Source: a plasmid
Direction: 5' to 3' (one strand)
DNA: 32,715 bases
NCBI RefSeq assembly: GCF_053078305.1
Contig: NZ_CP166878.1
The position numbers and the translations under genes were made by a program. This document shows positions 2,988 to 32,689 of this stretch, in pieces. Within the stretch, counting starts at the first letter, position 1; each line of letters starts with the position of its first letter. The notes below the pieces were generated by a model that worked only from the letters and a program-made list of their open reading frames with translations, ran no database searches and was not told the origin of the DNA.

Positions 2988-3000
2988 ACATTTAGCATTA

Positions 3001-3080
3001 TATGCTTATATGCTTATATGCTTATATGCTTATATGCTTATATGCTTATATGCTTATATGCTTATATGCTTATATGCTTA
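3001..3080. repeat. Perfect tandem array, 10 x 8 bp (TATGCTTA)
   Basis: Counted directly: ten uninterrupted TATGCTTA units. Degenerate units flank it (TAGCATTA at 2993-3000 and TATCATTG at 3081-3088). It starts 14 bp after the virB11 stop codon. Confidence 0.95.
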
Positions 3081-3105
3081 TATCATTGTGTTTGTGTGAA
3101 ATATT

Positions 3106-3299
3106 GCTGTAACATCGACGGTCTACGACCACCTACCACCTGAATAGCTGTAGGTTCCGTGCGGTCAGGCTTGGCAGGGGGCTGACGCGGTTCCTGGCGA
3201 CATGAAACTCCCTGGTTAGGGGTATCGGCGCGACCTGGCATCTGTGACTCTATAAAGCCATTTTTCGCGCCTTCCATGCCGCTAAAGCGGCATATTCCA
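3106..3299 (+). repeat. 194-bp dispersed non-coding repeat, copy A
   Basis: It runs from gctgtaacatcgacggtctacgacc to gccgctaaagcggcatattcca. It differs from copy C (18900-19093) at only 3 positions and from copy B (3962-4155) at roughly 20. All three copies are in the same orientation. Confidence 0.9.
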
Positions 3300-3366
3300 C
3301 ACTTCTAGATCCGGGGTTTTGGGTATATGCTATGTTTATATGCATAATTTATGTGGGGGGCTTGTT

Positions 3367-3612
3367 ATGAGAACAAATGTGGCAGTAAAAAAACGTAGTA
3401 TAAACGTATACTTAAATGCAGGGTTACTTGAAGAAGCAAAAGATCTTGATCTGAATGTTTCTGCTATCTCTAACAAAGCTCTCGAAAAAGCGGTAAGGGA
3501 GCGTAAGCGTGAACGCTGGATAGAAGAAAACCGTGCTGGCATTGAGGCATTAAACCGTTTTGTAGAAGATACCGGGATTTTTTCAGATGATGAAAATTTT
3601 GGGGTAATTTAG
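3367..3612 (+). CDS. ccdA: CcdA-family antitoxin
   Basis: The C-terminal half (RERWIEENRAGIEALNRFVEDTGIFSDDENF) parallels F-plasmid CcdA (RAERWKAENQEGMAEVARFIEMNGSFADENRDW, recalled from memory). I prefer the ATG at 3367, which is preceded by a GGGGGG ribosome-binding site, over the ORF-track start at 3319. The gene is coupled to ccdB. Confidence 0.85.
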   Translation: MRTNVAVKKRSINVYLNAGLLEEAKDLDLNVSAISNKALEKAVRERKRERWIEENRAGIEALNRFVEDTGIFSDDENFGVI

Positions 3613-3929
3613 TGAAACAATTTTCTGTCTACAAGAACAAATCGCGAAATAAACAGGCGTACCCCTATTTTATTGATATACAGGCAGAGATGCTTGCACA
3701 CCTTAACACCCGGTTGGTGATGCCTTTAACGCCAAAAGATAATTCAAACTCGCAGGTAAAGACGTTAACGCCAGTAATAAACATCAACCAGGTAGATTAT
3801 GTGGTTCTGACTACTATGATAACGACAACGGATGCAAAAAATCTGAACTCTGATAATGTCGTTATGGATGCTTCATATTTACGAGATCAACTGGTTTCTG
3901 CAATTGACATGATGATTCTGGGTATTTAA
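3612..3929 (+). CDS. ccdB: CcdB-family gyrase-poison toxin
   Basis: The 105-aa ORF starts with GTG, overlapping the ccdA stop codon. Its N-terminus (FSVYKNK...YPYFIDIQAEML...RLVMPL) and its C-terminus (AIDMMILGI) parallel F CcdB (FKVYTYK...RLFVDVQSDII...RMVIPL...AINLMFWGI, recalled from memory). Confidence 0.85.
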   Translation: MKQFSVYKNKSRNKQAYPYFIDIQAEMLAHLNTRLVMPLTPKDNSNSQVKTLTPVININQVDYVVLTTMITTTDAKNLNSDNVVMDASYLRDQLVSAIDMMILGI

Positions 3930-3961
3930 TTTTTGCAGGGTAGTAAATAGTAAAAAATATC

Positions 3962-4155
3962 GCTGTAACATCGACGGTCTACGACCACCTACCAGCCGAG
4001 TGGCTGTCTGTTCCGTGCAAATGGGCTTTGCAGGGGGCTGGCGCGGTTCCTGGCGACCTGAAAGCCCCTGGTTAGGGGTATCGGCGCGACCTGGCATCTG
4101 TGACTCTATGAAACCATTTTTCGCGCCTTCCATGCCGCTAAAGCGGCATATTCCA
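3962..4155 (+). repeat. 194-bp dispersed non-coding repeat, copy B
   Basis: It has the same ends and length as copies A and C. The divergent positions are clustered at about 3994-4046, with a few further downstream. It forms a direct repeat with copy A around ccdAB. Confidence 0.9.
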
Positions 4156-4233
4156 AACTTTGGAGCAGTTCTGCAATGTTGTTTGAATTGTTTCGTAGTC
4201 GTATCATTATTTTTTATGTGATGATTGTTTTTT

Positions 4234-4560
4234 TTATGTGTCTGACATTTTTCCAATCATGATTTCTGTGAGATTTGTATCAGCAAAATCTCCTTTCCCC
4301 GATTCAGTGTCAAAGTCGCCTGGCGTGAACTTATGTACGTCTTGCCAGACTGCGAAGCAGGTAGGGCATGTTACAGGTAGTTCGCCCTCCGCTATCTTTT
4401 CACAACTTTCTACCAGTTCTTGTTTCTCGTTGTACCTGATGTTATAGCCGCTTGTGCAAAGCGTTTCATACCCGTGAGCGCCCGTCACTATATGTGTGGC
4501 GGTTCTTTCTGTGATTTTTCCATCAACTAATAACTGTTCATGCGTTGTGATCGTTTGCAT
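4234..4560 (-). CDS. Hypothetical small acidic protein with a CPTC motif
   Basis: The 108-aa ORF is the only long frame in this interval and runs divergently from the T4SS operon. It has a single CxxC motif (VTCPTCF). I recognise no family. Confidence 0.5.
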   Translation of the reverse strand: MQTITTHEQLLVDGKITERTATHIVTGAHGYETLCTSGYNIRYNEKQELVESCEKIAEGELPVTCPTCFAVWQDVHKFTPGDFDTESGKGDFADTNLTEIMIGKMSDT

Positions 4561-4696
4561 GTCTGTCTCTCATAATTGTTGGTTTATGTGATTGTTGGGG
4601 CGACCGTAAAAATATACGCCAGATGATGGGAGAGCATCTTATTTCGTATTGCTCAAAAAAACATATGACAAATATCACAAAAATGAAGTGCAGGTA

Positions 4697-4735
4697 TTGA
4701 CATCGGGGGGGGGGGGGTAACGTAAAGATTATAAA
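4697..4735 (+). promoter_or_regulatory. Putative T4SS operon promoter containing a G13 homopolymer
   Basis: TTGACA lies at 4697-4702 and 13 consecutive G at 4705-4717. Several -10-like hexamers follow: TAACGT at 4718, TAAAGA at 4723 and TATAAA at 4730. The spacing from -35 to -10 therefore depends on the G-tract length. Confidence 0.4.
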
Positions 4736-4787
4736 TATAAATTTTACAAAACGTAAAAATATACTACGTCATTCGGTAAGAAATCAA

Positions 4788-5120
4788 ATGGCTGAAATAA
4801 AAGGAAAAATAACCAATCCCGCACTGGTTAATGCAAAAGTTTTTTACAACAGACGAACAAAGCTGGGGATACCTACAGAGGTCTTTTTGATCCTGATGTT
4901 CCTGAATGTTTTTGCTGTTGTGCTGTGTGTTATGTATTTCAGCACATTTTCCGTTATTTCGCTGATTTTATTTGTTCTGGTATCGGTTGTTCCTATGAAG
5001 TTCGTTTTTCATGGCGATCCCGATGCTCATAAAGCTTGGATTTATGGTTATTTGTCACCTTCCAGGCTGAACAATACCCACGCAGTGAAGCGTCGTATCA
5101 CATTTATAGACGCTATTTAG
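4788..5120 (+). CDS. VirB3/TrbD-like inner-membrane T4SS protein
   Basis: The 110-aa ORF is the first gene of the operon. A central hydrophobic hairpin follows an RRTKLGIP segment. The C-terminal HGDPDAHKAWIYGY resembles the TrbD segment ADPKMRFVYLRH (recalled from memory). Confidence 0.6.
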   Translation: MAEIKGKITNPALVNAKVFYNRRTKLGIPTEVFLILMFLNVFAVVLCVMYFSTFSVISLILFVLVSVVPMKFVFHGDPDAHKAWIYGYLSPSRLNNTHAVKRRITFIDAI

Positions 5121-15806: not shown

Positions 15807-16787
15807 GTGCAGGGCCATATGATTAGTCCGGCAATTGATTATTTTGCGGCAAACTTGCCATACCGACCTTATCACGCGAATGAATTGCTCTATGGGCTTC
15901 GTATCGATAAGGCAGCTAAAGCAGTGCTGGCGCGTTATATACAGCATAATCCACCTCATGCAATGTACTGGCTTGTTTTTGACGTTGACAGGCCAGTTGC
16001 GGCGATTGACTGGAATGATCTTAATGCGCCCACACCTAATTTTACGGTCAAAAATCCGGTTAATGGTCATGCACACCTGTTTTATGGGTTAAAAACGGCA
16101 GTTCGTGTTGCCAAAGACGGTAGCATTAAGGCGATCGAGTTTGCTGCTGCGGTAGAGCGAGGATTACGTGACAAACTTAAATCAGATATCGGCTATGCAG
16201 GGCTGATCTGTAAAAATCCTCTCCATACATGCTGGCAGGTTGTTGAATGGCGTGGAGAACTTTATGAGTTAGCTGAACTGGCTGATTATGTTGATTTGTA
16301 CGCGTCAACAGCGGCTAACGATGAACAGGCATTCGATATCGACTTTAGTTATGGGCTTGGGCGAAATTGTTGGCTCTTCAATCTGACCCGTATCTGGTCA
16401 TATACAGCAATCCGGCAGGGCTGGCCTGATTTCCCGCAATGGAAAGAAGCGGTGATTCAGCGTGTCGAAATGTATAACGTGCAGTTAAGCGTGCCTTTGT
16501 CTCACAAAGAATGTGTATGCATTGGCTCCAGCATCGCCAAATGGACGCATAGACGCTTCACTGAAGCTGGATTTGAGCAATATGTAGCTGATACCCATAC
16601 ATCAGAAATTCAGGCTCGTAGAGGGCGTAAGAATCGCTCAGAAGTGCAGGCTGCTAAGGGGCGTAAAGGTGGGAAAATATCTAAAAGAGGGATTGTTGAG
16701 GATTCTGCGCGGAGTTTGAAACCGTGGGTAGAGTTAGGGATCAGTCGGGCAACCTATTATCGACGTAGGGCAAATGAGACCAAATAA
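15807..16787 (+). CDS. rep: ColE2-type replication initiator (Replicase/primase family)
   Basis: Long stretches match my recollection of ColE2-P9 Rep: HALYWL.FDVD, NITVKNP.NGHAHL.Y, GLICKNP, AIRQGWP, VIQRVEMYN, SIAK.THR.F and SARSLKPW..LGISRATYYR. The ORF-track start is the GTG at 15807, and the ATG at 15819 is an alternative. Confidence 0.85.
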   Translation: MQGHMISPAIDYFAANLPYRPYHANELLYGLRIDKAAKAVLARYIQHNPPHAMYWLVFDVDRPVAAIDWNDLNAPTPNFTVKNPVNGHAHLFYGLKTAVRVAKDGSIKAIEFAAAVERGLRDKLKSDIGYAGLICKNPLHTCWQVVEWRGELYELAELADYVDLYASTAANDEQAFDIDFSYGLGRNCWLFNLTRIWSYTAIRQGWPDFPQWKEAVIQRVEMYNVQLSVPLSHKECVCIGSSIAKWTHRRFTEAGFEQYVADTHTSEIQARRGRKNRSEVQAAKGRKGGKISKRGIVEDSARSLKPWVELGISRATYYRRRANETK

Positions 16788-17293: not shown

Positions 17294-17327
17294 GGGGCGT
17301 TGAAAACGGAAAATAACCCACGCTAAG
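17294..17327 (+). repeat. Tn3-family (Tn21-like) terminal inverted repeat, outer end to the left
   Basis: GGGGCGTTGAAAACGGAAAATAACCCACGCTAAG resembles the Tn21/Tn501 inverted repeat (..CAGAAAACGGAAAATAAAGCACGCTAAG, recalled from memory). It has the family hallmarks of a GGGG start and a TAAG end. Confidence 0.7.
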
Positions 17328-17644
17328 ACTGTTTTTTAACCAGGCTATGATAATGCTATCTGTGACGGATGATGGTCGTTGCTCTTTTGTTAATGCTAAC
17401 GGATGCGTACATTAGCATTAACTTTTTGTGTTATGTTGCACGTGAATTTTTGAGTTTTAATATTTATATAATGTTATGAATATTAAAGATAAATGATGAA
17501 CATGCTTTGTGATGGCTTTTGGCGCATAGATTGATCTTAAGATCTGCGCATGTTATTTTTATGCGGTTTTGACGAATTTATAAGGGTAGGACGTTCCCGT
17601 AACAGCGTCCAGGGGAGGGGGTAGCGAATTTATAGCCCCCGGAA

Positions 17645-17727
17645 TGCAACAACCCCCTGATATCTCTCTTAGAGCTTTTGCGGGGCCAAAGAAGATAATC
17701 AGGGGGTCCAAAGCAGGCTTTTGCCTG
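17645..17727 (-). ncRNA. Predicted CopA/Inc-type antisense RNA controlling repA
   Basis: A minus-strand promoter reads TTGTAT (17761-17756), a 16-nt spacer, then TATAAT (17739-17734). The transcript would form a small hairpin (caggc/gcctg, 17713-17726). It would then form a long bulged hairpin closed by CCCCCTGAT/ATCAGGGGG (17653-17706), followed by the tail UUGUUGCAUU. It lies 55-130 nt upstream of repA, as in IncFII replicons. Confidence 0.55.
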
Positions 17728-17780
17728 TAAAGGATTATAGCAAATGCATTTTTCAATACAAGACTACTGCCCGGCAATAA

Positions 17781-18506
17781 GTGCGGGCGGTGGTGGCTGA
17801 AAAGAACAATTCCTTAATCCCCCGCATATCGCCGTCAGGGGTGGCCAAACAAAGTCCATGCTATAACGTTGTGTCGCGTAAGCGACGCCGTTTCCTCAAT
17901 CGCTGGATTAAATCGCTGGCGACGGTCGCTGGGCGTGTCAAAATCAAAAACGAACTCCGCCGCCGTATCCGGCATAACCGATATTGGGTTAATGAGGCTA
18001 ACAAGTTTGGCATAGAGGCACTTTGCGAACTGATGTTAGCTATCCTGGATGATCTCGATTTACGCTCCTGGGAAACCAGGCATAACCTCGAAACACTGGC
18101 AGAACGTGCCGGACTGGTGACACGCAGTGACGCGGGGCGTAAATCTATTTCCCGTGCCAGTAGGGGATGTGATCGCCTGGTCTGGTTGAATGCGATCATT
18201 ACAGATAAAGCGCCGTTTAACCCCTATGATGCACGGTGTGCCTGTAAACACATTGAAGTAACCGAAGACTTCTTTGCCATACTCGGCATTCCGTTAAAAC
18301 TGGTTTATCGGGAACGTGCCAGGCTGTTAAAGGCAGATCCTAATGAAATGATTTACTCCGGGGATGCCAGACTGATAGCTATCAGAGTCCAGAACTGGAC
18401 ACGGAAAGCGGCAGCCGGATTAGCCCGGATGAAAGCGAAACGCGACGCAGCTCGACAACGCAAAAAAGAATATTACGCTCACCCACCTACCCCTATTCCG
18501 GTCTGA
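17781..18506 (+). CDS. repA: IncFII-family replication initiator RepA
   Basis: ETLAERAGLVTRSDAGRKSISRASRGCDRLVWLNAIIT parallels R100/R1 RepA (TTLAIECGLATESGAGKLSITRATRALTFLSELGLIT, recalled from memory). The C-terminus is basic. The start codon (GTG at 17781) is uncertain. Confidence 0.8.
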   Translation: MRAVVAEKNNSLIPRISPSGVAKQSPCYNVVSRKRRRFLNRWIKSLATVAGRVKIKNELRRRIRHNRYWVNEANKFGIEALCELMLAILDDLDLRSWETRHNLETLAERAGLVTRSDAGRKSISRASRGCDRLVWLNAIITDKAPFNPYDARCACKHIEVTEDFFAILGIPLKLVYRERARLLKADPNEMIYSGDARLIAIRVQNWTRKAAAGLARMKAKRDAARQRKKEYYAHPPTPIPV

Positions 18507-18578
18507 TACAGGCTAACTTACCGCCTTATGGGGCGGTGTATCGCCACGTCCATAATAAAAAGCTGTACAAAAAATAGT

Positions 18579-18613
18579 CTTGGCGTGGGTTATTTTCCGT
18601 TTTCCATGCTCAG
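18579..18613 (-). repeat. Tn21-like inverted-repeat core, inverted partner of 17294-17327
   Basis: The reverse complement reads CTGAGCATGGAAAACGGAAAATAACCCACGCCAAG. The 26-nt core matches the left copy with one mismatch, and the similarity continues a further 10 nt inward. The outer GGGG is missing. Confidence 0.6.
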
Positions 18614-18659: not shown

Positions 18660-18668
18660 TGTGGATAA
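18660..18668 (-). promoter_or_regulatory. Consensus DnaA box (TTATCCACA), probable start of the IncFII-type origin
   Basis: TGTGGATAA on the plus strand is a 9/9 match to the consensus. It lies 154 bp after the repA stop codon, which is the spacing expected for an R1-type oriR. Confidence 0.55.
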
Positions 18669-18705
18669 TCATACTTAAAGTGCAAACGATATGCCGCAAT
18701 TACTC

Positions 18706-18750
18706 TTTTGCTTCTCTTTTAGTTACTTACGTACTAAAAGAGAAGCAAAA
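18706..18750. repeat. Perfect 18-bp inverted repeat (45-nt hairpin/cruciform)
   Basis: TTTTGCTTCTCTTTTAGT (18706-18723) pairs with ACTAAAAGAGAAGCAAAA (18733-18750). Two further pairs are possible inside the 9-nt spacer. Confidence 0.85.
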
Positions 18751-18899
18751 AAGAAAAACATTACTGTTATCCCCTTTAACAAGTGAATAACCTAAAAACA
18801 TCGGCGCAAGCGCCTCAAAAGTAGCACCCCTCGCAAGCTCGGGGCATTAGAAACAACAGCATCCCATCATCACAATCGAACTATTATTCATCTATCTTC

Positions 18900-19093
18900 G
18901 CTGTAACATCGACGGTCTACGACCACCTACCACCTGAATAGCTGTAGGTTCCGTGCGGTCAGGCTTAGCAGGAGGCTGACGCGGTTCCTGGCGACATGAA
19001 ACTCCCTAGTTAGGGGTATCGGCGCGACCTGGCATCTGTGACTCTATAAAGCCATTTTTCGCGCCTTCCATGCCGCTAAAGCGGCATATTCCA
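18900..19093 (+). repeat. 194-bp dispersed non-coding repeat, copy C
   Basis: It differs from copy A at 3 positions (cttagcaggagg and ccctagtt). One of these creates an in-frame stop in the minus-strand ORF that copies A and B appear to carry. Confidence 0.9.
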
Positions 19094-22404: not shown

Positions 22405-22536
22405 TATACAATCACTTGATTCGATAATTATAAAATTAAGTGATTTTATGATTGCATGATTCTATGAGCATGGGATTATTAGAATGTTTGGCAGAGGTAC
22501 TATGTGAACAAAGGGGAGGGGAAAATGCCTAAAGTT
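22405..22536 (+). repeat. Orphan duplicate of the parA promoter/operator and first parA codons
   Basis: This 132 bp aligns without gaps to 24844-24975, with about 10 substitutions. It includes the inverted-repeat operator, the ribosome-binding site and ATG CCT AAA GTT, after which the sequence diverges. Confidence 0.85.
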
Positions 22537-22614
22537 GGAGCAGCGGGAGCGTTCGAACAGAGACTTACGGTTTCGTTCTTTGTGCAGCAGTTGAAACCGT
22601 AATTATTTGTTTTA

Positions 22615-24843: not shown

Positions 24844-24942
24844 TATACAATCACTTGATTCGATAATCATAAAATCAAGTGATTTTATGATTGCATAATT
24901 TTATGAGTATGAGATTATTAGAATGTTTGGCAGAGGTACTAT
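24844..24942 (+). promoter_or_regulatory. parA promoter/operator region with a 12-bp inverted repeat
   Basis: AATCACTTGATT (24849-24860) and AATCAAGTGATT (24873-24884) are perfect inverted repeats separated by 12 bp. Repeated ATGATT/TATGAG motifs follow. Confidence 0.55.
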
Positions 24943-24963
24943 GTGAACAAAGGGGAGGGGCAA

Positions 24964-25587
24964 ATGCCTAAAGTTATAGCATTTTTAAATGGTAAGGGGG
25001 GGGTGTCTAAGACAACCTCGGCAGTCAATATTGCTACTGCTCTTGCTCGTAAGGGATACAAAGTTGTCGTTGTGGATACCGATCCTCAGGGAAGTGTTAG
25101 TAACTGGTATGATGACAGTAAGTGTGTTTTTGATGTAGCAGAAGCTACGACAGAAAAAGAAATTTACCGTTTGCGGAAGGCGCTTCCTTTGCACGATTTT
25201 ATCATTATTGATGGTGCTGCGGCGATTTCGGCGATATCGGCAGCTGCTGTTATGGTTTCTGATCTTGTCATTATCCCAGTTACTCCTTCGCCGCTTGATT
25301 TTGCTGCATGTGGCGCGATATTGGCAGTGATAGAAGCTCGGCAGGATTTACGCCCGGTGATTGCTCGCTTTTTGATTACTAAAAAAGTACAGCAAACGCA
25401 TATGCTATCTTTGCTGAAAGAATCTATTGCAGAAACAAGCATACCAGCATTAAAAACAGGAACGTCGTACAGGCAGTCATATATAAAGTCTATGCTAGAT
25501 GGTGGTACTATATTTGATACAAAAGATAGTGCTGCTAAAGGTGAAATATCAGTCATTACAGAAGAAATACTTGGACTATTAAAATGA
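24964..25587 (+). CDS. parA: ParA-family partition ATPase (small, type Ib-like)
   Basis: The ORF has the deviant Walker A motif [16 protein letters not shown], followed by [11 protein letters not shown] and IIIDGAAA. The ATG at 24964 has a GGAGGGG ribosome-binding site. The ORF track begins at the GTG at 24943. Confidence 0.9.
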
Positions 25588-30692: not shown

Positions 30693-30721
30693 AATTGCCC
30701 TCTGATTATCAGAGGGCAATT
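30693..30721 (+). terminator. Terminator-like hairpin after the coiled-coil gene
   Basis: An 11-bp perfect stem (aattgccctct/agagggcaatt) has a 7-nt loop. The following T run is short. Confidence 0.5.
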
Positions 30722-30942
30722 TGTCATTGGTAGTGCCTATTACCGTTAGTTATGATCACGAAAAACGCGATGATTGTTCATTACAATGCCCTATCGTTAG
30801 ACAGGACATGTGAGCGTTTTATCAACAACGTAAGCAGAATTTTTTGCAGAAATGATCCTGCATCAATACTGAAAATCGTTGTTGTCTTACATGTGTTAAA
30901 CATGATTTTTTAGTCAATTTCATAACAAAATATACCTACGTT

Positions 30943-31883
30943 TTTTTGGGAAGTCCTCTTACTGAACCAACAGAAAGAGGACGAAAAAGAGGAAACATGA
31001 ATGTTTCCTCTGCCATGTTACTACCGTGAATTTTCAGCTACTTATCTGTACTGGTTGCCTCCAGTATTTTCAGATTCATCTACAGACTTCGGCTATATCG
31101 TCTGTAGATTTTTGCGCCTACTCGTTCACTCTCCCACACTCAGGAATGTAATTTCGGTGCCACCCGAAATTTTCCAGAGTGCTTCCCACGTTAGCTGATC
31201 TTGTCGGGATAACCCGCCACTGGCTCAGACAAACTACTAGGCTACGCCTTACCATTTCTGGCTTTCAGGGGGCCGAGATTCCAAAGCACCTCCCTTACTC
31301 ATAATTTGCCGTCAACACCATAGCCAGACACTTAAGTCATGGCTGGTTATCACTTACCCGAATGCGACCTCTTCGGACGCAATTACAGGCTTGAGCTTTA
31401 CAGCGATCTGCAAAGGTTGCCCCTCACAGTACCGACGTTTCCAGGTTTCCCCTCAACGCCCTGACACCTCACGATGCCCTCAGCAGCCCACCTGTCGGGA
31501 ATATGTTGTACCTTCTCAAGCACCCCATATTCGGGATTTTCACCCGTTCAAGATCAACAGGGATCACGTAGTCACCTACGTTCCCGTTTCCGTGTCGCCC
31601 AGTCTCACGCTTTGGCGTGGATTGGGTCGGACAGGGGAGTTTCACCCCCGAACGCCCTTCGTAGCCGTACCAGCCCAATTACAGGCATACGGCTTCGGCA
31701 GTAACTGTTATCAGGGTTGGCAGTCCTGATAACTCACCTTCGTTTGGCAGACGAAGGCTTTTGGCTTTTTTCGTCTTTCGACTTCCCAAAAATGCGTCGA
31801 GAGTTGGCAGCTCGCAACGCACGTTTTGTTACGTAAGCGATGCTTGATAGTCCGGCGCCCGAAAGGCTCGCATCGAGCCGGAC
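30943..31883 (-). ncRNA. ORF-less group II intron-like ribozyme with domain order D5-D6-D1-D2-D3
   Basis: All coordinates are plus-strand and the RNA is read on the minus strand.
- Domain V is AGCCGUAUGCCUGUAAUUGGGCUGGUACGGCU (31694-31663). It has the AGC triad, a 2-nt bulge and a 5-bp upper stem, and compares with the consensus GAGCCGUAUGCGAUGAAAGUCGCACGUACGGUUC.
- A domain VI-like hairpin with a GAAA loop and a bulged A (at 31627) spans 31657-31624.
- Downstream lies domain I-like sequence, including GGGUGAAAAUCCCGAA.
- A J2/3-domain III-like motif, UAGUAGUUUGUCUGAG, lies at about 31240-31225.
- The 13-nt termini UUUUUGGGAAGUC (31792-31780) and GACUUCCCAAAAA (30955-30943) are complementary.
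- A promoter-like sequence reads TTGCGC (31918-31913), a 17-nt spacer, then TATTAT (31895-31890).
- No reverse-transcriptase ORF is present. Confidence 0.55.
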
Positions 31884-31984: not shown

Positions 31985-32689
31985 ATGAGGATTTCGATGA
32001 TTTACCGTTTTAAAACCGATTTTATGCGTCAGATAGCCATGCTGTTTTCGCTGGGATATACAAGGTGGTTTGGTGGCGAAATTCCTCTAAACCCTCACTA
32101 TAAATTCGTGTCACTAAAAGCACGTTTTGATGAACTCTACGCTATCAATGCAACAGCACAACAACGTTTCAGGAGAAGAGAAAAAGGAGTAGCAAACTGC
32201 AAATTTCTTGTCTGGTTTGATGAAAAAAATGCAACTCTTTTATGGGTGTTACTTGCAACAGAAGGGGATGTATACAATGAAGAGAAATTTTATGATGGTA
32301 TGAATAAAAAAACTCGTATTTCTGTTTCAGGTTATGAACTAAAAACAGTTCCACATCGAGGTAGAAAACCTAGCGTTTCATGGGCTATGAAGAAAGAAAC
32401 TTATGAAAAGTGGCATGCGGATATAAAGAAGTCGATAAGAACAAGAAATGATGAGAATATAGAAAAATTATGGTATTCACTCAGGAGGGTGGCAGGGTTT
32501 AGTGAGTTACGTAGACAGGTATTTAAGTTACAGAGATATGCAATGACAGAGTGGAAACGCTCCAGAAGAGGTGAATATCCTTATGAGAAGATTTTTGTTG
32601 GATGGTTAGGACGATTTAAACAAAGTGAAACCATCACAGATGAAGAGCTTTTGTTAATATCGAAGTCAAAAAAAGCTGATATCTTTTAG
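31985..32689 (+). CDS. Hypothetical basic protein
   Basis: The 234-aa ORF contains several early Met codons, so the start is uncertain. It is divergent from the ribozyme-like locus. I recognise no family. Confidence 0.5.
   Translation: MRISMIYRFKTDFMRQIAMLFSLGYTRWFGGEIPLNPHYKFVSLKARFDELYAINATAQQRFRRREKGVANCKFLVWFDEKNATLLWVLLATEGDVYNEEKFYDGMNKKTRISVSGYELKTVPHRGRKPSVSWAMKKETYEKWHADIKKSIRTRNDENIEKLWYSLRRVAGFSELRRQVFKLQRYAMTEWKRSRRGEYPYEKIFVGWLGRFKQSETITDEELLLISKSKKADIF

Follow-up and report, generated by a model that had tools for sequence, protein, structure and literature searches.

Plasmid G sites are primase (DnaG)-dependent single-strand initiation (ssi) signals of R1/R100 and ColIb-P9. 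Such sites are reportedly known in R1/R100, under the names G site and ssiA, as well as in ColIb-P9. The G sites of phages and plasmids are said to be alike only near the primer start, with the plasmid versions containing three conserved blocks. G sites were defined biochemically 30-35 years ago and are absent from Rfam and from genome annotation, so that they look like orphan conserved repeats. The three 194-nt repeats considered here are real, non-coding, and strand-specific, and they most likely represent a divergent subfamily of plasmid G sites, for which we infer priming from sequence. Each copy is probably a plasmid G site in its own right, that is, a DnaG-dependent ssi signal located on the minus strand of the window (the whole 32,715-nt stretch of plasmid DNA that was analyzed).

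Plasmid context and repeat copies

The window is essentially a 30-kb conjugative plasmid with a VirB-type T4SS, an ssb gene, and a PilI gene; its coupling protein (1-1866) is weakly TraD-like. It carries two replicons, one with an IncFII/IncI-like RepA (17781-18506) and one with a ColE2-type Rep (15807-16787) encoded directly after ssb and recognized by PF03090 and by PDB 3VW4 (E = 8e-39). Two 138-nt direct repeats (22405-22542 and 24844-24981) that are 93% identical, with a palindrome-like arm of 44 nt inside each, flank a 2.4-kb stretch upstream of a parA-like gene.

A repeat search of the whole window returns one family of three direct 194-nt copies in a single orientation, at the coordinates originally predicted. 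These putative G sites, all with the minus strand as template, are copy A (3106-3299), which the full-length covariance model matches on the minus strand at 3166-3294 (138 bits), copy B (3962-4155), which is 91% identical and scores 148.6 bits with the covariance model, and copy C (18900-19093), which is 98% identical. Similarity ends abruptly at both edges of the copies, and an identity of 91-98% across three 194-nt copies is far beyond chance. Copies A and C differ at exactly the three positions anticipated (68, 74, and 109 of the repeat). Between A and B, about 20 differences had been predicted in a variable block at 3137-3190; the clustering is confirmed, while the count is 18 and the block is slightly wider, with 16 of the 18 differences within repeat positions 34-104 and the remaining two at 149 and 152.

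The minus-strand reading frame that is open across copies A and B contains a stop codon in copy C, and PGAP annotates no CDS on the copy stretches of the near-identical plasmid pEc631_3. Both observations agree with the earlier view of a non-coding element.

Copy A is abutted by 11 perfect tandem 8-mers, (TTATATGC)x11, at 2998-3085, and TATATGC motifs recur just past it (3322-3345). The tandem 8-mers, a region that gives spurious miRNA matches in Rfam, could be binding sites of a small DNA-binding protein.

Relatives and distribution

A search of plasmid databases with the 194-mer, of the blastn/nhmmer kind proposed alongside the original prediction, matches 646 PLSDB plasmids. Eleven are close relatives of the present plasmid, and about 600 are 1.5-kb Col(MG828)-type plasmids that share 80-86% identity with the element and encode only a small HTH-type RepA. 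A two-block pattern search adds 81 metagenomic contigs with about 107 copies (63 distinct), and wherever such a contig holds several copies, they share one orientation. A scan of viral contigs gives no match. The 16-base pattern used to scan genome contigs is too short, and nearly all of its 120 loci are chance matches; only L033 and L057 are real, and L093 and L119 were rejected on inspection.

Full-length relatives detected by both profile and covariance model occur in R100, in ColIb-P9, near oriT in F and R100, and in one Sodalis contig. The whole model is covered in R100 (locus L007, 40386-40519, equivalent to 90,386-90,519 or ~90.39-90.52 kb of the R100 record) and, by nhmmer and covariance model alike, in ColIb-P9 (locus L006, 2198-2331). 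By map position, these two loci are probably the published G sites. The R100-type element is present in at least 5000 IncF/IncI plasmids. The original statement that the repeat matches no known family is thereby superseded, as it is related to the ori-proximal elements of R100 and ColIb-P9 and to the oriT-proximal elements of F and R100, and it contains a G4-type start motif.

The oriT-proximal family member of F (L008, 25396-25530) and R100 (L005, 49805-49938) is found on the transferred strand between orf273 and orf169. It differs from the Frpo elements, and the F and R100 records consulted leave it unannotated. The G site of p15A/pACYC184 gives no convincing match. Full-text literature searches, whose coverage stopped short of the primary G-site papers, return no mention of the element.

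Conserved blocks and helices

Alignment A1 of the family contains three conserved blocks, GCGGCATGGAAGGC, GCCGAnnCCC, and CAGCCnCCTGCnAnnCC, with a variable internal region between them. Independent single-stranded DNA folds of ten representatives contain the same three helices built from differing stem sequences. The distal terminal hairpin (helix 1; 3276-3293, minus strand) reads ATGCCGC-loop-GCGGCAT, is followed on the template by an invariant GGAAGGC, and appears in every independent fold. It is 100% paired, and its stem is kept as either ATGCCGC/GCGGCAT or ATGCCC/GGGCAT while the loop varies freely. The long-range helix (3227-3271, minus strand) pairs GGCGCG(A) with (T)CGCGCC and closes a loop of ~33 nt. 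Two of its pairs are changed on both sides, with the compensatory variants GGCGG/CCGCC in R100 and ColIb-P9 and GGCCA/TGGCC in F and R100 near oriT. Both helices had been predicted, as ATGCCGC-TAAA-GCGGCAT at 3276-3293 and as GGCGCGA/TCGCGCC (3227-3233 with 3265-3271), and both are present in the minimum-free-energy folds. Hairpin 2 (3209-3222, minus strand) reads CCCC-TAACCA-GGGA on the template and is weakened in this plasmid lineage; it recurs with unrelated stems in R100, F, ColIb-P9, and Sodalis. Across the folded representatives, its stems are CCCC/GGGG, CCCGC/GCGGG, CCGGC/GCCGG, and GCTGCG/CGTAGC.

Across 47 distinct sequences in the model-fitted alignment, 98.2% of cells are paired, compared with 32-58% for slid partners. 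Changes on both sides affect three pairs, a number reached by at most 2 of 500 shuffles. The covariation support is real, within the bounds of a model-fitted alignment and few independent lineages.

Wobble pairs carry information about the strand that folds. Among 18 family variants of the small hairpin, the minus strand has 63 Watson-Crick, 21 G.T, and 6 mismatched cells, while the plus strand has 63, 1, and 26, respectively; this hairpin therefore folds on the minus strand. The A-to-B change described for it (CACCT..AGCTG to CAGCC..GGCTG) is real, although the folding strand is opposite to the one first proposed. Hairpin 2 of the conjugative-plasmid lineage has the opposite asymmetry, with 9 C.A cells on the minus strand (9 vs 0) that trace to ~4 independent events. 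The wobble asymmetry is thus mixed overall, the small hairpin favoring the minus strand and hairpin 2 the plus strand. Fold z-scores are modest and alike on the two strands (-2.0 and -2.1), and since both strands fold equally well, folding energy is uninformative for the choice of strand.

These data bear on the notion that the element acts as a structured RNA transcribed from the plus strand, be it a cis-regulatory leader, a repA 3′ UTR element, or an sRNA. In its favor, the hairpin 2 variants of this lineage form G.U-compatible pairs on the plus strand, and rep genes of the same orientation precede the element. Such an RNA nevertheless appears very unlikely, given that the small-hairpin wobble favors the minus strand 21 to 1, the z-scores are low and equal for the two strands, and the conserved blocks match the priming origins of single-stranded DNA phages. 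In addition, no Rfam family matches the copies at the gathering score or even at E up to 10, and no promoter or terminator was found flanking them. Of the functions initially considered (RNA, priming site, or single-strand promoter), the priming site is the one favored by the analysis, while RNA and promoter are unsupported.

On the template strand, the window subfamily contains a conserved 63-nt extension located 3′ of the predicted start. This subfamily-specific extension has minus-strand hairpins and, on a rather unlikely reading taken up below, may be a second, undescribed signal.

In some tiny plasmids (L142, 330-423; L133, 2795-2888), part of the distal block (AATGCCCGTCAGGGTATGGAAGGCG) recurs in the opposite orientation. 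This second stretch is ~200 nt away from the main site and falls within a rep gene variant, at its 3′ end. The opposite-strand covariance-model matches at L133 and L142 were rejected as family members, being one-block partial inverted copies that lack the start motif.

Predicted primer start and phage origins

The pattern CTGC.A..CC is invariant on the minus strand in all aligned family members (alignments A1 and A2), and the most conserved block reads CAGCCnCCTGCnAAGCC on that strand. In copy A, the predicted primer-start block occupies 3168-3177 of the minus strand and reads CTGCCAAGCC, an assignment based on the invariance of CTGC.A..CC and on phage matches. The template T of its CTG lies opposite A3176, from which the sequence predicts a primer 5′-AGGGGGCTGACG... 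running in the plus direction. The predicted starts in copies B and C are opposite A4032 and A18970, respectively.

The decamer CTGCAAAGCC is identical at the annotated primer start of phage G4, whose complementary-strand origin reads CCCTACTGCAAAGCC and whose primer start is given in the GenBank record as the T of CTG. All ten bases of the G4 decamer recur in copy B, the tiny plasmids, and the Sodalis element. A 10-nt match anywhere in the G4 origin region has a chance of ~5% on shuffled sequence, and the weight of this match lies in its primer-start position and its invariance; because of this chance level, alpha3, St-1, and phiK were compared as well. Each of these three phages has a single copy of the motif on its viral strand, located in the intergenic region between G and H, whose homology to the G4 origin is clear. 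The sequence there, CCTCCTGCTAAGCC, agrees with copy C over 14 nt without a mismatch. The neighboring phage stem starts with TGGAAGGCG, the counterpart of which in the plasmids is the invariant ATGGAAGGCG. The covariance model of the plasmid family weakly matches exactly these motif sites of alpha3, St-1, and phiK. The phage link comes from a strand-aware motif comparison and not from blastn, which detects no similarity to G4 at its sensitivity. In G4, St-1, and alpha3, primase starts at this hairpin region (PMC13037366). The CTG directly follows hairpin I in the phages (3-4 nt), and in the plasmids it lies 35-50 nt from the nearest conserved hairpin.

The element could in principle be an ssi signal of another type, either a phiX174-type, PriA-dependent primosome site or a site for a plasmid or helper primase such as the ColE2-type Rep. 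Multi-hairpin single-stranded DNA is common to all ssi classes, the ColE2-type Rep is encoded beside ssb on the plasmid, and the terminal hairpin of the window copies contains AAGCGG on the plus strand. AAGCGG is typical of n′ sites, the hairpins recognized by PriA. However, this hexamer is not conserved in the family: the tiny plasmids have TGAC, TGGC, or TGAT in the loop, and R100, ColIb-P9, and F have TGAT, TGGC, TTTT, or TGTC. Against a plasmid primase, ColE2 Rep acts on its own double-stranded ori, and the ~600 tiny plasmids with the element encode only the HTH-type RepA and no primase. The invariant motif is moreover the DnaG-type CTG start common to the G4-type phages. Another ssi type is held to be improbable.

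Copy C and the RepA replicon

The repA gene of the IncFII_repA family (17781-18506, plus strand; PF02387) is preceded by the repBA regulatory pseudoknot (17651-17778; RF01089, 86 bits). A DnaA box at 18660-18668 on the minus strand (TGTGGATAA on the plus strand) marks a putative RepA-dependent origin and is followed by an AT-rich stretch at ~18690-18760. Copy C begins ~400 bp downstream of repA, and its predicted start at 18970 is 464 bp past the repA stop (18506), beyond both the DnaA box and the AT-rich stretch. Plasmid pNORD1_2 has the same layout.

In R100 and ColIb-P9, the DnaA box is found at +176 and +167 after the rep stop (repA1 and repZ, respectively) and the predicted start at +727 and +722. 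The R100 start is ~365 bp past the DnaA-box/AT-rich origin and agrees with the position of the R1 G site, which is reported to lie ~400 bp past oriR. The direction of the copy C start, away from repA, matches leading-strand synthesis in the R1/R100 system. By analogy with that system, copy C is proposed to be the leading-strand start of the RepA replicon.

Orientation relative to rep is constant in five replicon types and, as described below, also relative to the nicked strand. A reading with the plus strand as the active strand, in which the terminal hairpin is a "hairpin I" followed by CTG as in R100 and ColIb-P9, was rejected on two grounds: a CTG is missing at that place in the window copies, and synthesis would run against the leading strand, which moves away from repA. 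It is the minus strand that is functional, i.e., the complement of the sequence first presented.

A 59-nt inverted repeat (80% complementary) brackets repA, with one arm in the leader (17297-17355) and the other just ahead of the DnaA box (18551-18609).

Transfer polarity and oriT

In F, in ColIb-P9, and in 52 of 52 small-plasmid contigs with a ColE1-type nic motif, the strand that is nicked and transferred is also the element's template strand. The 52 contigs are related to one another and so do not amount to 52 independent cases. The nic sequences used for F, ColIb-P9, and the small plasmids are those reported in the literature. In F, the nic motif lies on the minus strand at 26163 of L008, with the element 640-750 nt away. 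In the small plasmids, nic is ~500 nt from the element and separate from it. The element does not itself appear to be oriT, as the nic motifs are elsewhere in the tiny plasmids, F, and ColIb-P9.

No known nic core occurs anywhere in the window. A position for oriT beside copy B was rejected, as 4150-4800 contains no inverted repeats. A cluster of short perfect inverted repeats at 30693-31109 (30.7-31.1 kb), which includes a 14-bp palindrome (30693-30721), lies upstream of a putative relaxase gene (31985-32689) and is the best oriT candidate. The suggested action on the transferred strand is plausible, with F, ColIb-P9, and the small-plasmid contigs all showing the fitting polarity, while the oriT of the window itself was not located.

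The element may go beyond an ordinary replicon G site and represent a portable, modular complementary-strand origin shared by the conjugative plasmid and the mobilizable 1.5-kb plasmids. This possibility, which is considered rather unlikely, arises because the element is always on the transferred strand 500-750 nt from nic (in the tiny plasmids and the oriT-proximal relative of F) and because its domains are exchanged by recombination, as in the mosaic copy B. If true, it would set how fast incoming DNA becomes double-stranded and would provide a recombination hotspot for the capture of cassettes such as ccdAB.

Copies A and B and the ccdAB cassette

The ccdA/ccdB toxin-antitoxin cassette (3367-3929, plus strand; annotation of pEc631_3) has copy A directly upstream and copy B directly downstream, and no origin is next to either copy. 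The metagenomic relative L138 is collinear with the window except that exactly 3305-3954, which contains ccdAB, is missing. At the junction (608-813), it has a single hybrid copy with an A-type left flank and a B-type right flank. Copy B is itself a mosaic, with positions 31-105 being 95% identical to the tiny-plasmid type and positions 128-194 being 97% identical to copy A. The absence of ccdAB from L138 and its one hybrid copy identify the A/B pair as the product of recombination across one site. To judge from these sequences, the pair records the gain or loss of ccdAB by homologous recombination, and the repeat serves as a homology patch for this exchange of a toxin-antitoxin cassette. The single hybrid copy of L138 and the mosaic structure of copy B thus imply a basic design of two sites approximately half a circle apart.

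The A/B duplication, clearly a recombination product, and the mosaic structure of copy B would also fit a non-functional dispersed repeat, such as a MITE/IS remnant or a recombination scar. Yet terminal inverted repeats are absent, as the copy ends, GCTGTAAC... and ...CATATTCCA, are not inverted repeats of each other, and no target-site duplication is present, the flanks of the three copies having nothing in common. The element furthermore retains 80-86% identity and invariant blocks across hundreds of unrelated small plasmids. At least 5000 IncF/IncI plasmids have a recognizable relative in their core replicon, and the element keeps a fixed place and direction with respect to both rep genes and nic sites. 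A non-functional repeat is the least probable of the explanations considered.

The genes that surround the copies raise the further option of an Frpo-like single-stranded DNA promoter, whose hairpin would recreate -35 and -10 boxes on the incoming strand, driving early plus-strand genes (ccdAB, the T4SS operon, and orf 19188). Every window copy is upstream of plus-strand genes, the relative in ColIb-P9 and R100 also precedes a toxin-antitoxin pair, and Frpo-type elements are likewise dispersed repeats of one orientation. On the other hand, the profile matches neither the Frpo1/Frpo2 loci of F nor the R100 and ColIb-P9 leading regions, a sigma-70-like -35/-10 hexamer pair is absent from the copies, and these form three short helices instead of one long promoter-mimicking stem. 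The oriT-proximal copy of F and R100 points only at the antisense of orf169, and in the tiny plasmids no gene is downstream of the element. A promoter function is accordingly held to be remoter still than that of a structured RNA, and the DnaG-dependent priming site remains the preferred reading.

A run of 12 G residues after TTGACA (4697-4717) is intergenic and shortly precedes the T4SS operon, whose first position is 4788. It could be a slipped-strand switch for transfer-gene expression.

Proposed mechanism and significance

Several traits associate the element with the G sites: (i) homology to the R100 and ColIb-P9 elements, (ii) a CTG start with likeness to the G4 type, (iii) conserved blocks with a variable internal region, and (iv), for copy C only, a place on the leading-strand template past a RepA-type origin. 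In a mechanism modeled on G4 and R1, the minus strand would become single-stranded and be coated by SSB, with the conserved hairpins and blocks remaining exposed on the coated strand. Priming by host DnaG primase would then begin at the T within the invariant CTG of CAGCCnCCTGCnAAGCC, and the new strand would extend in the plus direction from opposite A3176, A4032, and A18970. Copy C would provide a fixed leading-strand start for the RepA replicon, running away from repA. The A/B locus would prime the same strand approximately half a circle from copy C; its likeliest use, a less certain step, would be complementary-strand synthesis on the transferred strand in the recipient.

The subfamily gives a testable leading-strand start in a poorly studied type of 30-kb conjugative plasmid. 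It also explains what the largest conserved non-coding block is in the 1.5-kb Col(MG828)-type plasmids, which are very common. In addition, it would place a primase-based route beside the RNA-polymerase-based Frpo route, currently an object of study, for making transferred single strands double-stranded.

Comparison with known systems

Similar to the element, the Frpo/ssiD, ssiE/ssi1-3 sequences of F and ColIb-P9 are dispersed, strand-specific, non-coding repeats of one orientation on conjugative plasmids, and they act on single-stranded DNA and can provide primers. They differ in their use of RNA polymerase and in having one long stem with -35/-10 elements, and they have no sequence similarity to the element. 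ssiA and ssiB of RSF1010 and the phiX174-type sites are likewise hairpin-containing ssi signals in or near plasmid origins; however, they are recognized by the plasmid primase RepB′ or by PriA. RSF1010 moreover contains an oppositely oriented pair of 40-nt hairpins, whereas the window copies have one orientation and a DnaG CTG block.

The origins of G4, alpha3, St-1, and phiK have in common with the element the start block (CTGCAAAGCC in G4 and CCTCCTGCTAAGCC in the others), the TGGAAGGCG stem, and GC-rich hairpins 5′ of the start on the template. The enzyme logic would, by inference, be the same, namely SSB-coated DNA and primase alone. In contrast, there is no overall sequence similarity, the number and size of the hairpins differ, and the start that follows hairpin I within 3-4 nt in the phages is tens of nucleotides away in the plasmids.

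The closest counterparts are the G sites of R100 and ColIb-P9, which share with the element full-length homology, three blocks, three helices, the start block CAGCCnCCTGCnAnnCC, and the side of and orientation to repA. Outside the blocks, similarity is limited to ~20-30 bits and blastn gives no match, and the start is 722-727 bp past the rep stop as opposed to 464 bp here. Relative to R100 and ColIb-P9, the window plasmid has three copies, two of which are away from any origin, and its subfamily possesses the extra conserved 63-nt extension and is also resident in 1.5-kb Col(MG828)-type plasmids.
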